Under the pieces are notes generated by a model, which saw only the letters and a list, made by a program, of their open reading frames with translations, did not search any database and had not been told where the DNA came from. Shown in pieces: positions 26,330 to 40,031 of a stretch of 64,000 bases of DNA. Where the stretch lies: NCBI GenBank assembly GCA_951406725.2, contig OX597829.1, positions 46,748,001 to 46,812,000 on the forward strand, given 5' to 3'. The translations under genes and the position numbers were made by a program. Each line of letters opens with the position of its first letter. The first letter of the stretch is position 1. This stretch comes from Octopus vulgaris (taxonomy: Eukaryota).

Positions 26330-26967
26330 TATGAGGTTTTGGCATCCAGAAGATCCAAAAAGCAGGTAAGATTACTTAAGAGCTACGGAAAGACCTCTGT
26401 TAGACTCCCGGTTTGATAATAGTATGAGTGAGGAGTCTAACGCGGGTCGTGTGTGAGCCTGTATAGGTTAAATAAAATGAGACAACAAAGCCAAGGCAGT
26501 ATGAAGTTTCTAGGACATTTTATAAAGAGAGGAGTAGTCTTACAGCTGTTTCAGGGATATAAAAGATATCCCATCATCAGAGACGAGTTAAGAGCTTCAA
26601 TTGAAGGAAATAATAGAGTTCAATACGAGAAGTTATTTTGGAAAGAGAAAGAAATAAGAACTATAAAGGGAAATATGAGAATGAAAATAAAGATATGATG
26701 GATGTTAAGCTTGCTGGGTGTTAGGATCCAACATATGTCTTTATTTTTATTGTTATATTTCCCTTTATACTTCCTATATCTCTCTCTTTCCAAAGTAACT
26801 TCTCATATTGAACTCTAATAATTTCCTTATATTTAACTCTTTCATATCATCTTGACGATGAGATATCCTTTAACTTCCTGAAACAGCTGTAAGACTGACC
26901 GTTTCTTTTACAATGTCCTAGAAATCTCATACCACCTTGGCTTTGCTGTCTCATTTTATTTAACCTG

Positions 26968-26970
<3 letters not shown>
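26330..26970. mobile_element. Fold-back element with a hammerhead on each arm (Penelope pLTR/retrozyme-like)
   Basis: Diverged inverted arms 26462-26705 and 26725-26970, flanked by (TA)n; the tail 26330-26455 has an inverted homologue at 24200-24335. Confidence 0.75.
26537..26584 (-). ncRNA. Type I minimal hammerhead ribozyme, intact core
   Basis: Minus: GUCU-CUGAUGA-uGGGAUAU cuuuu AUAUCCCu-GAAAC-AGCU-GUA-AGAC; stems I, II and III all pair. Confidence 0.85.
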
Positions 26971-26997
<27 letters not shown>

Positions 26998-27001
<4 letters not shown>

Positions 27002-27832
27002 ATTTCAACAATTAATCAATTTCACCAAGTGTTCAGTATGCAAAGGGACCATTTAAGGCGAATTCAAATTATTACATTATATAAAAGGGCTTAGTAAAAT
27101 AAATTACTTTGCCGCATACTGAACTCATTAGAAATAGCAGCTAAAAAACTTTTTTAAAGCTATTTCTAATACTTAAAGAAAATCTCTCTCATATATAGTG
27201 TTTGCTTAATTCAACTCACAAAAGTTTGGGGGTAAGGACATCAAAAAATCAAATGCTAAGGTTATTTGAGAACGTACGTTTCAAGATTAGTCAAAACGAC
27301 ACTTCTATCCGAAGCATTAATTAGAGGGAGATTAATTATAATTTCAACAATTATAAATTGTTGAAATTGTTGAAATTATAATTAATCTCCCTCTAATTAA
27401 TGCTTCGGATTTTACCGAAATAAGCATAGTGTTTGATGATTTTAACCCACGCTGGTGGAAAGGGGAGAACAGAAATTCTTCGCTTGCTTATTTGAGTTTG
27501 TTGGCACTGTTAGTTACGAGCAGATCTTCGAGAGCGATGAGAAGCCGAAAGGGTATGTTCTTACTTTCAGTGTTTCCAAATCCAAACCAAGGAGTTTCTG
27601 AGCTGATGATAGAAGTGTCGTTTTGACTAATCTTGAAACGTACGTTCTCAAATAACCTTAGCATTTGATTTTTTGATGTCCTTACCCCCAAACTTTTGTG
27701 AGTTGAATTAAGCAAACACTATATATGAGAGAGATTTTCTTTAAGTATTAGAAATAGCTTTAAAAAGTTTTTTAGCTGCTATTTCTAATGAGTTCAGTAT
27801 GCGGCAAAGTAATTTATTTTACTAAGCCCTTT

Positions 27833-27840
<8 letters not shown>
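26998..27840. mobile_element. Inverted-repeat hammerhead element
   Basis: Near-identical arms 27076-27309 and 27608-27840; internal hairpin 27307-27410; (TA)n on both sides. Confidence 0.8.
27599..27650 (+). ncRNA. Type I hammerhead ribozyme, intact core
   Basis: UGAG-CUGAUGA-uAGAagu GUC guuuu GAC uaaUCUu-GAAAC-GUAC-GUU-CUCA. Confidence 0.8.
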
Positions 27841-28421
<581 letters not shown>

Positions 28422-33493: not shown

Positions 33494-35215
33494 CACTATT
33501 AAAGACAGTTCAACACTATTAAAGACAGTTAAACACTATTAAAGACAGTTCAACACTATTAAAGACAGTTAAACACTATTAAAGACAGTTCATGGATTTA
33601 CCACACTATTAAAGACAGTTCATGGATTTACCAAAGAAATAGATATGAAATTTGGATTAGAAAAATGCGCCAAAGTAACCATGAAAAGAGGAAAACTAGT
33701 TAAGAGTAACAACATCACACCAGATAAAACCAATGAAATAAAAGAATTAGACCAAAGCCAAACTTACAAATACTTAGGAATCCATGAACTAGATAAGACA
33801 CAACACACACAAATGAAAGAGAAAATAAAAAAAGAATATTATAGACGAGTTAGATCAATACTAAAAACAAAGCTCAATGCTAAAAACAAGATAATAGGTA
33901 TCAACACTTTAGCTGTCCCAGTTATAAGTTACAGCTACAATATCCTTAACTGGACACGAAATGAACTGTCCAAAATAGATAGGAAAACAAGAAAAATACT
34001 GACAGGATCTAGGATGCATCACCCAAAATCTGACATAGAAAGACTATATATACAACGTATAGAAGGTGATAGAGGCCTTATACAGCTGGAAAACTACTAT
34101 AAAATAACCACCATAGGACTGCAAAAATACCTACTTCAGAAGGAAGGAAAACTGATCCAGATAGCAGCAAAGCACGAGCAAAACAAAAAACTGTTCTCAG
34201 TATTTAAGGAAGCTGACAAATACAAACAAGAAATCATACCACCTAATAAACACAAAGAAGAAGAAGAAGAAGAAGAAGATGAAGAAACAACAAAAGCTAT
34301 GAAACAAATGAAATCCAAACTAAAAATAGAACAGCAACGAGCCATGATAAAACGATGGCAAGAAAAGCCCCTTCATGGTAAATACTGCACTAAACTAAAC
34401 GCAAAAGAAATAGACAAAGAAAAATCCCAGCAATGGTTGAGAAGCTCAGGACTCAAAGCAGAAACAGAGGGATTTTTAATTGCAGCACAAGACCAAAGCC
34501 TCCCCACCAGAAATTACCAAAAACATGTAATGAAAAGAAATATTACAAGTAACTGCAGAATATGTGGAGATGGACAAGAAACAATAAATCATATTATCTC
34601 TAGCTGCCCAGTCCTGGCTAAGAAGGAATATATTCACAGACATGACAGAGTTGGAACCTACATACATTGGAAGCTATGCCAACATTATGGAATAACAACA
34701 GAAAAAAGATGGTATAGGCACACACCAGAAAAGGTCACAGAAAACGAGAAAGCAACCATACTCTGGGATATGCCGATACACATAGATAGAGAAATTAAGG
34801 CCAACAGACCAGATATAGTTGTCAGAGATCATGAAGAAAAAAAATGCTTTTTAATTGATGTATCAATACCGGCTGATGACAACGTGTCTCTAAAAGAAAT
34901 GGAGAAACTCTCAAAATACAAAGACCTGGAAATAGAGATAACTAGAATGTGGAACCTGAAAACAGAAACAATTCCTATCATAGTAGGTGCATTAGGCATG
35001 ATAAAAAAATATTCAGACAAATACATAACAAAAACACCAGGACTTACAAACACATATAACATACAGAAAATTGCACTACTAGGCACTGCACACATCCTAC
35101 GCAGAACATTTTCCATACAATAACCATCAGAACATCACAAAAAATCACAGCACATACCCAAGGCACACAGAGCTGCGCTCGGTAGTGAAGTGAAAGCACG
35201 CTATAAAAATAATAA
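33491..35215 (+). mobile_element. 5'-truncated RLE-type non-LTR retrotransposon (R4/Dong clade) inserted in (AAT)n
   Basis: Flanked by (AAT)n at 33449-33490 and 35221-35300; ORF with RT C-terminus, CCHC knuckle and restriction-like endonuclease; ~90-nt 3' UTR. Dong elements are known to target TAA repeats. Confidence 0.9.
33645..35123 (+). CDS. Partial retrotransposon ORF, 492 aa: RT thumb/C-terminus, zinc knuckle, RLE endonuclease; YxDD motif lost by truncation
   Basis: MKFGLEKC...YKYLG; CRICGDGQETINHIISSC; RHDRV; NRPDIV..D.....FLIDVSIP; KLSKYKDL; IPIIVGALG. Confidence 0.9.
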   Translation: MKFGLEKCAKVTMKRGKLVKSNNITPDKTNEIKELDQSQTYKYLGIHELDKTQHTQMKEKIKKEYYRRVRSILKTKLNAKNKIIGINTLAVPVISYSYNILNWTRNELSKIDRKTRKILTGSRMHHPKSDIERLYIQRIEGDRGLIQLENYYKITTIGLQKYLLQKEGKLIQIAAKHEQNKKLFSVFKEADKYKQEIIPPNKHKEEEEEEEDEETTKAMKQMKSKLKIEQQRAMIKRWQEKPLHGKYCTKLNAKEIDKEKSQQWLRSSGLKAETEGFLIAAQDQSLPTRNYQKHVMKRNITSNCRICGDGQETINHIISSCPVLAKKEYIHRHDRVGTYIHWKLCQHYGITTEKRWYRHTPEKVTENEKATILWDMPIHIDREIKANRPDIVVRDHEEKKCFLIDVSIPADDNVSLKEMEKLSKYKDLEIEITRMWNLKTETIPIIVGALGMIKKYSDKYITKTPGLTNTYNIQKIALLGTAHILRRTFSIQ

Positions 35216-38561: not shown

Positions 38562-40031
38562 TAAAGGGGTTGGACAAAATAATGGAAACAACTTAAAATT
38601 TCAAACAAATTTATTGTAATATGGGGCAGGACCGCCTTTGGCACTAATTGCAGCTTGAATTCTATGATATATGGTCTCGTACAAAGTTTGAATTTTTGTC
38701 CATTATTCTGCTAAAACAGTCTCCAGTTCTTGATGGTGGTAGAAAATATCGTCTCCTTACTTGATTTTCTAAAATACACCATAAATATTCAATAATATTG
38801 AGATCTGGGGACTGCGGTGGCCAGATAAGATGTTCAACTTTACTAGAATGCTCCTCGTACTATTCAGTAACAACTTTAGCTGTTTGAATTGGTGCATTAT
38901 CATCCTGAAAGATTGCGCTTCCTCCCGGAAACAGTTCTGCAAACATAGGTTGAATTTGGTCAGATAAAATGCTTAAATAGTCTTGACTATTAATTCTGGA
39001 AACCATAGGGCCGGCGGATTTCCAAGTTATAGCCCCCCCCCCCCCGATCATCACAGATCCTCTTCCATGTTTAACAGTTGGAAGAAGGCAGTGTGGGTCA
39101 AATGCTTCTTTTGATGGTCTCCACATATATACTCGACCAGTGGTCGCAAATAAGGTAAAGAATGGCTCGTCCAAGAAAATAACATTCTTCCACTGCTCTA
39201 GGGACAAATTCTGCAGGTTTTTACTCCACTTTAAACGCTTTGCAACGTTTGTTTTTGAAAGTAGTCGTTTTCTGATTGCAGCCCTCCCGTAAAATCCGGA
39301 TTTGTGCAGCTCCCAGCGAACAGCTTTTATGGAAACTGGGGTCACGAGGTAGTAATTAAGCTCTACAGAAATTTTGGGAGCTGTTCTTTTGTGATCCTTT
39401 CTAACAATTCACGTAAGAGCCCGATGGTCTCTATCTGAAAGTTTTGGTTTTCTACAGGAGTTTTGTTTCGAGGAGGAGTTTTTTCCCTCTTTCTCAAAGG
39501 CTGTCATTACTTTTGAGGCAGCACTTCCTGATACACCAAACTTCTTGTTTAGTGTATCAAATACGAGCACCAACAATTTGACCTCTTTGAAAGTCCGATT
39601 TATCTGCCATTTTAATGAATTTTAATTACCTTTTCTGATGAAATCTGAAACGAAACAGCAATTCTAGCAAAACATATTTTTTCCAAAGGAATGTTTGTCC
39701 ATTCTTCAGCTAAAACAGTTTCCAGTTCTTGTAGTGATGGTGGTGGAGGATATCGACTCCTTATTTGTTTTTCTAAAATGCACCATAAATATTCAATAAT
39801 ATTGAGATCTAGGGACTGTGGTGGCCAGATAAGATGTTCAACTTCGCTAGAATGCTCCTTGTGCCATTCAGTAACAACTTTAGCAGTGTGAATTGGTGCA
39901 TTATCATATTAAGCAATACTAATAATAAATAATAAAAAAACATAAAAATATACAAGCTTTTGACGGCTTTATAGATATTTCAAAATTATGATTCTATGAT
40001 GCTAGGTGTTTCCATTATTTTGTCCAATGTA
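38562..40031 (-). mobile_element. Tc1-family DNA transposon, decayed
   Basis: TIR core ttggacaaaataatggaaaca at both ends with TA flanks; transposase remnants inside. Confidence 0.9.
38700..39610 (-). pseudogene. Tc1 DDE transposase pseudogene
   Basis: WKNVIFLDE, PTVKHGRGSVM, IFQDDNAP, PPQSPDLNIIEYLW; interrupted by stops and frameshifts. Confidence 0.85.

Follow-up and report, generated by a model that had tools for sequence, protein, structure and literature searches.

A short element with a hammerhead ribozyme motif, two inverted arms and a tail that runs back into its own head raises the question of what kind of template produced it. The element lies in the window, the 64,000-nt stretch of Octopus vulgaris DNA analyzed here (GenBank assembly GCA_951406725.2, contig OX597829.1, positions 46,748,001 to 46,812,000). 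A preliminary description of this copy proposed a young insertion made from a tandem or circular RNA, as for retrozymes or pLTRs, with a monomer of about 538 nt. We find that the element belongs to a young hammerhead repeat family that encodes no protein and has a ~560-nt unit, and that part of this copy has been deleted. The tandem-or-circle proposal was largely right, and the proposed length was wrong. The family is new within an already known class, the non-LTR retrozymes; both this class and the one-ended “tail” have been published before.

The window copy and its family

The element sits in a (TA)n microsatellite, whose left and right parts, as read from the sequence, occupy 26968..26997 and 27840..27879. 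Its left arm, on the minus strand, was aligned to the unit at L006:1501-2062. From the outside inward, this alignment gives the outer 3' end at site B (26998..27013, unit 1-16 of the next unit), unit 244-539 with only the 3' half of the hammerhead (27014..27309), and unit 1-43 (27310..27352). The “tail” between sites A and B, present in this arm only, spans 26998..27073 on the minus strand, 23 nt below the family's ~98 nt. The central head-to-head junction (27353..27364) consists of a 9-nt duplication of the unit head and 3 extra bases. The right arm, on the plus strand, covers unit 1-480 (27365..27843), has 99% identity to other copies, and ends at site A with its outer 3' end. The copy is thus oriented with B at its left end, assigned by hand from the arm alignment, and A at its right end.

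Compared with the same unit, the left arm has two deletions: unit 540-562 (23 nt, at 27014/27013, with AAT microhomology) and unit 44-243 (200 nt, between 27310 and 27309, with GAT microhomology). The 200-nt deletion takes out the 5' half and core of the left-arm ribozyme, and the window copy retains one intact motif. Because the left arm is without these two segments, the monomer is ~561-562 nt, not 538 nt; the shorter value holds for the window copy only, and the family unit is 560-563 nt. The sequence matches that led to a permuted unit are present. One 17-mer occurs twice, at 26998-27014 and at 27337-27353, and in reverse complement it agrees with the plus-arm head at 27365. The arms are also near-identical, as described (99.2% complementary over 237 nt, 27073-27309 against 27608-27843).

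Searching the species' own genome, 2.8 Gb in 227 contigs, with DNA yielded 1498 candidates, of which 40 were scored. The exact ribozyme 23-mer has 863 genomic matches, against 0 in a reversed control. Since the first 100 of these 863 matches spread over 50 loci, we estimate that several hundred family loci are likely. Two sets of loci were analyzed: 39 from the best DNA matches, which are most like the window copy, and an independent set of 47 new loci among the 50 that hold the first 100 ribozyme matches, taken by position on C1 and C2. These 86 loci comprise arrays of 1-12 units with a period of 559-563 nt, and the hammerhead motif was collected in 214 copies. The tail-into-head junction is genuine: other genomic copies are head-to-tail arrays with this period, and the 17-nt match did not turn out to be a mere repeat inside some longer, linear element. 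The insertion is young, as first suggested, with copies 97-100% alike in the youngest set. Contigs of 8 public runs, of unrecorded type, cover the unit. The 562-nt wrap junction occurs in contigs of 4/4 runs in one comparison and of 0/4 in another, and such contigs are uninformative on RNA ends, strand, and circularity.

The unit is non-coding (longest Met-started frame 58 aa and longest stop-free stretch 91 aa in the circularized unit), has a GC content of 33%, and is found at loci dispersed over many contigs. It is not autonomous, having no ORF and arms that stop in TA tracts or unrelated flank. LTR-type organization is absent, judged by the ends, which are fixed at 3' sites and random at the 5' side. 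A plant-type LTR retrozyme, with a type III hammerhead, two LTRs, and a 4-bp TSD, was considered and rejected on the type I topology and the tandem and inverted arrays of this family.

Two further hammerhead families directly adjoin the element. The left neighbor (26462-26969), in the same TA tract, is an inverted pair with 81% identity between arms. It has a canonical type I core on the minus strand (~26545-26588), whose palindromic stem III is ACAGCTGT, and a decayed hammerhead copy on the plus strand (~26844-26895). The right neighbor (27964-28309) has inverted arms at 27968-28083 and 28189-28304 (99%), and between them a core at ~28112-28182, whose stem III is ACGATCGT. Within 1.9 kb, TA tracts thus hold three adjoining ribozyme elements. 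Elsewhere in the window, a 516-aa open frame (33573-35120, plus strand) resembles by eye a C-terminal non-LTR reverse transcriptase (RT), and a 182-aa frame (38863-39408, minus strand) resembles by eye a Tc1/mariner transposase fragment.

The ribozyme motif and the folded 3' region

The hammerhead motif lies where it was first placed, at 27599..27650 on the plus strand, with the GUU triplet at 27644-27646. It comprises stem I (UGAG/CUCA), CUGAUGA (27603-27609), stem II (27610-27634), GAAA (27635-27638), and a palindromic stem III (27637-27646), with the cut predicted after U27646. The motif is non-canonical in its U.U at the base of stem II, its 4-bp stem I, and its GUU triplet. We call it a putative type I ribozyme because of its core motif, the conservation of this motif, and the stem changes in sister families. 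Rfam has no hammerhead match in the window element, at gathering level or at E<=10; its matches at the central palindrome are miRNA-type hairpins only. Folded alone, in three plus-strand stretches, the motif does not adopt the hammerhead structure (z -0.07 to 0.46).

Because the 5' half of the motif had served to select one half of the loci, only unit 271-288, which lies outside the searched 23-mer, offers a fair test of conservation. This segment differs at 0.23%, compared with 2.9% elsewhere, and is equaled in conservation by 49/472 other 18-nt windows. Variation among the 214 motif copies falls chiefly in loop II and distal stem I. The sister families, read by eye, keep the core and have stem I as CUGAG/CUCGG or CCUACG/CGUAGG, stem II as GGA/UCC, and loop III as GUAC or GCGC. 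The conservation of the motif suggests that it is under selection. A contig of run X14 whose first base directly follows the predicted cut was rejected as a cleavage trace, since a same-run variant at the preceding base explains the break. A T-to-A change at the cut base itself (L006:1782, unit 282), turning GUU into GUA, occurs in 4/4 runs with other organism labels; GUA still fits the NUH rule.

A conserved fold marks the 3' region that surrounds sites A and B; in the window it starts with hairpins before site A (27747..27840, plus strand). In an alignment of 14 sequences, 96.8% of cells are paired. Changes on both sides of a pair, found in 5/40 pairs, are within shuffle range (94/500), and kinship inflates the other fold measures. 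This structured region is a likely candidate for a cis signal to the helper enzyme. The circular monomer folds with a z of -5.7 against 60 shuffles, and its plus strand folds better than its minus strand (-142.6 vs -123.5 kcal/mol); the predicted fold of the circular monomer does not include the ribozyme structure.

Two-armed insertions and their template

We find that 57/86 loci are two-armed, head-to-head in every case. The inverted arm is thus the family's normal insertion form and no peculiarity of the window copy. The outer 3' ends map to either of two sites, A at unit ~475-490 and B at unit ~12-16 of the next unit, ~98 nt downstream. Wherever both ends of a two-armed locus lie at these sites, one is an A end and the other a B end (52/52): 23/23 among the 39 window-like loci and 29/29 among the 47 position-picked loci. 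If ends were chosen independently, this outcome would have a probability near 2e-16 (0.5^52). The one-ended “tail” of ~98 nt is present in 52/52 of these loci. A further 5 two-armed loci have one off-site end each, and the 29 single-armed loci end at A (11) or at B (18). Nearly all family 3' ends at A or B (132/137) abut (TA)4 within 14 nt; because the target is a TA tract, a target-site duplication is unreadable. Excluded from these counts were a neighboring fragment in L034, a deletion-riddled unit in L036, and 8-10 nt at arm ends.

The inner ends are spread evenly along the unit (n=106, KS p=0.63). Only 3/106 fall within 5 nt of the ribozyme cut, which is no enrichment, and insertions do not end at GUU. 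Arm lengths are heavy-tailed, up to 12 units, and in the position-picked set 31/76 arms are longer than one unit. Central junctions show microhomology of at least 2 nt in 22/51 cases, compared with 24% in simulation (p=0.002), and short fillers in 20/51.

Near-perfect inverted arms with TA flanks would suit a DNA foldback element or MITE, and an assembly artefact of inverted reads might also be suspected. However, the outer ends are fixed but different, the centers are random, and the arrays are tandem. A foldback element would also not explain the conserved ribozyme or an RNA structure with G-U-compatible changes. As for an artefact, the inversion ends at the element edge and the wrap junction is found in four other runs. 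Both readings are already contradicted by the array, end, and junction data, and we give them almost no credence.

A single cDNA from site B might instead fold back, copy itself into the inverted arm, and stop at A. Self-priming of this kind has been proposed for rotifer Penelope palindromes (PMC3846280), and it would account for shared haplotypes and for A and B occurring together. About 6/53 central junctions are symmetrical at self-complementary sites. Such junctions recur at one 6-nt palindrome at unit 158 (L090, L093, and L108), and are also seen at unit 515 (L072) and unit 383 (L109). Yet the A arm carries sequence absent from the B arm in 19/48 pairs (e.g., L032 and L068), the inner ends of the arms do not match, and their lengths show no correlation (rho 0.015, n=48). 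Fold-back is therefore refuted as the general route and is improbable as an account of the family; it may underlie a minority of insertions.

Variation among units bears on the nature of the template. Substitutions per 100 nt number 1.35 between loci, 0.39 within an arm, and 0.28 between arms in a first comparison, and 4.41, 0.39, and 0.59, respectively, in a second. Substitutions private to one locus and fixed throughout the covering units of its two arms number 17 and 14 in the two comparisons, and 17 of these 31 span 3 or more units. The opposite arm of the same locus is the nearest sequence in only 18/24 and 20/27 loci. At sites covered by at least 4 units, variants shared with other loci are present in all units in 160/185 cases; private variants are confined to a single unit in 34 cases, and occur in every unit in 6 and in a subset of units in 9. 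Homopolymer columns were left out of this analysis, and singletons may include assembly errors. Both arms cover 76 within-locus polymorphisms. Five of these occur in both arms, all five as the locus majority allele, and minority variants common to both arms in register number 0/71. A heterogeneous linear multimer should give shared variants in this test, the power of which depends on the variety of the parent array. These data point to a monomer bottleneck at each insertion followed by seamless re-expansion, most simply a circle; conversion between arms may also have played a part. The retrozyme- or pLTR-like tandem template of the preliminary description is borne out by the tandem arrays and Penelope-type ends; the circular form of that RNA is probable from its genomic footprints.

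A circle would be unnecessary if Penelope-type double priming took place on an uncut linear multimer of a parent array, with local duplication or conversion keeping arrays uniform. In vitro, uncut RNA is the dominant Penelope template and ribozyme cleavage is not needed (PMC11167929), and satellite-type local amplification is preferred for retrozyme arrays in bioRxiv 10.64898/2026.07.22.740005. A scarless cut site is compatible with uncut RNA too, as are the heavy-tailed arm lengths. Long arrays also contain intermediate patterns, with variants in a subset of units (14/234 variant-locus pairs). Because of such subsets (L048 and L116), we conclude that local duplication or conversion also acts. 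Against an uncut multimer stand the lineage variants found in all covering units and the 0/71 shared minority variants. In addition, with 31/76 arms exceeding one unit, re-expansion would be needed separately in many young arms. On balance we regard this explanation as unlikely, while granting it some weight. In the two arrays just named, L048 has four variants in alternate units and the 12-mer L116 has one variant in units 3, 6, and 9; these higher-order patterns could reflect multimeric circles, later duplication, or assembly effects.

Linear ribozyme-cut monomers could mimic a circle if the enzyme jumped from end to end. They would impose the same monomer bottleneck and leave one haplotype per locus. 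Template jumps usually scar the product, however, and we find no indels around the ribozyme cut (unit 275-290) in 222-226 units, compared with 0.9% per column overall. At the cut itself the count is 0 in 222 units, and inner ends are as rare there as noted above. We therefore hold jumping between linear monomers to be very improbable.

Penelope enzymes and known systems

The genome carries young, intact elements with RT and, at the C-terminus, a GIY-YIG domain, in frames of 781 aa and 775 aa. Their linker cysteine motif, read by eye against the published description, suggests that both families belong to the Neptune clade. Both end in (TA)n at two sites ~30-46 nt apart. Again, one end of each kind is found in 10/10 two-armed autonomous loci (8/8 for the 775-aa family and 2/2 for the 781-aa family). 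The terminal sequences of four RT/GIY-YIG families (these two and two others) have no match to the unit above noise. Thus, a helper class is indicated but no specific helper is assigned. This survey scored 150 of 6136 GIY-YIG candidates. An RT-like ORF within 1.5 kb was seen by eye at none of 30 loci taken from 294 with the tail motif.

Several of these elements are of interest in themselves. One young autonomous element (L127-L142, e.g., L140:889-6110) has a frame of 479 aa, stop to stop, followed by the 781-aa RT/GIY-YIG frame. It also has terminal repeats of ~510 nt, a tail of 40 nt, and a hammerhead-like motif that shows the U3-A8 core change. Another autonomous family (L197-L216) has a 4270-nt unit and forms partial tandems over two units and head-to-head pairs; 106/106 scored copies have 100% identity over 391 aa. 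This family is a very recent burst and a good source of enzyme for in vitro work. Searches of sister families for a helper yielded only further small elements. These include several sister families of ~560-600 nt (L147-L196) with a common structured 3' region and an identically placed hammerhead. A single DNA query gave 2057 candidates, and one tail motif gave the 294 exact matches mentioned above.

We assign a probability of roughly 0.6 to the reading that the family is a Penelope-mobilized non-LTR retrozyme, in which both (TA)n ends are primed on one RNA, probably a monomeric circle. Arrays would be transcribed and their hammerheads would cut the RNA at GUU, probably after pairing into dimers by way of the palindromic stem III; the cut monomer would then be ligated to a circle. 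A Neptune-type RT/endonuclease acting in trans would cut the (TA)n tract, and the dimeric enzyme would start two cDNAs, one from site A and one from site B. Each cDNA would travel round the template for a variable distance, so that an arm could become longer than one unit. The two cDNA ends would then be joined through microhomology or short filler. In the window copy, the B arm would later have lost, or have skipped in copying, 23 and 200 nt. More tentatively, and with slightly less than even confidence, we propose that these loci directly record, in the genome, how a dimeric Penelope enzyme copies one circular RNA from both ends of the target, with two start sites that are obligatory and differ from each other. 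The tail, the inverted copy, and the partial tandems would then be one reaction, in autonomous and non-autonomous elements alike.

These loci bear on two published questions. The origin of tandem-plus-inverted Penelope insertions with a one-ended tail has been called unresolved (PMC8557442, PMC11167929), and for retrozyme arrays rolling-circle copying (PMC7229834) is debated against satellite-type amplification (bioRxiv 10.64898/2026.07.22.740005). A short, young, multi-haplotype family supplies hundreds of natural replicates that can be counted for both. The circle and dimer models are testable because A and B are strictly paired and each insertion has a single haplotype, and a substrate of 560 nt on which two start sites are mapped suits in vitro testing. 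The accessible literature yielded no counts of paired start sites or per-locus haplotypes; the early subscription papers on the tail (Evgen'ev & Arkhipova 2005; Arkhipova 2006) and supplements may hold them.

Metazoan non-LTR retrozymes produce circRNAs in coral, mussel, and axolotl, and Penelope helpers have been proposed for them (PMC7229834). As described there and in bioRxiv 10.64898/2026.07.22.740005, they share with the window family non-coding tandem units with one type I hammerhead each, low GC, monomers to 12-mers, and a proposed circRNA template and Penelope helper. The unit of 560 nt is longer than the retrozyme average of ~300 nt but inside the 51-972 nt range of the preprint. Circular RNA was demonstrated for the retrozymes of PMC7229834, whereas the window family is known from genomic copies. 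The preprint also reports that 8/9 tested dimers failed to cleave, and the accessible text of these two sources does not describe two-armed insertions for retrozymes.

The hammerheads of Penelope pLTRs (PMC4209133) have the same type I core, a short palindromic helix III suited to dimer cleavage, a short helix I, and an extra base at the foot of helix II. The window family differs from those motifs in lacking the G10.1-C11.1 pair, which a sister family has, and in having GUU rather than GUC. The same paper proposed in 2014 that circles serve as templates for more-than-unit copies.

The closest parallels in insertion structure are the Neptune-type EN+ Penelope-like elements (PMC8557442, PMC3846280, PMC11167929). 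Shared features are a head-to-head inverted copy, a one-ended extension, (TA)n targeting, two internal RT starts, and a hammerhead upstream of the 3' end. The Penelope protein cleaves and extends both strands, uses two internal RNA start sites with both strands alike in their use, and is predicted to be a dimer (PMC11167929). The tail is ~98 nt in the window family, compared with 30-40 nt published for EN+ Penelope elements. The window family also differs in having no ORF, in repeating the whole 560-nt unit, and in showing no sequence link to the autonomous families tested.

In L1 twin priming, a single RNA is primed from both ends of the target and microhomology links the cDNAs, with inversion as the result. 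The L1 arms represent neighboring stretches of a linear RNA and do not overlap. In contrast, the arms of the window family have overlapping sequence, begin at two fixed sites, and may exceed one unit. By its genomic features, the family is thus a putative non-LTR retrozyme that appears to behave like an ORF-less Penelope element.
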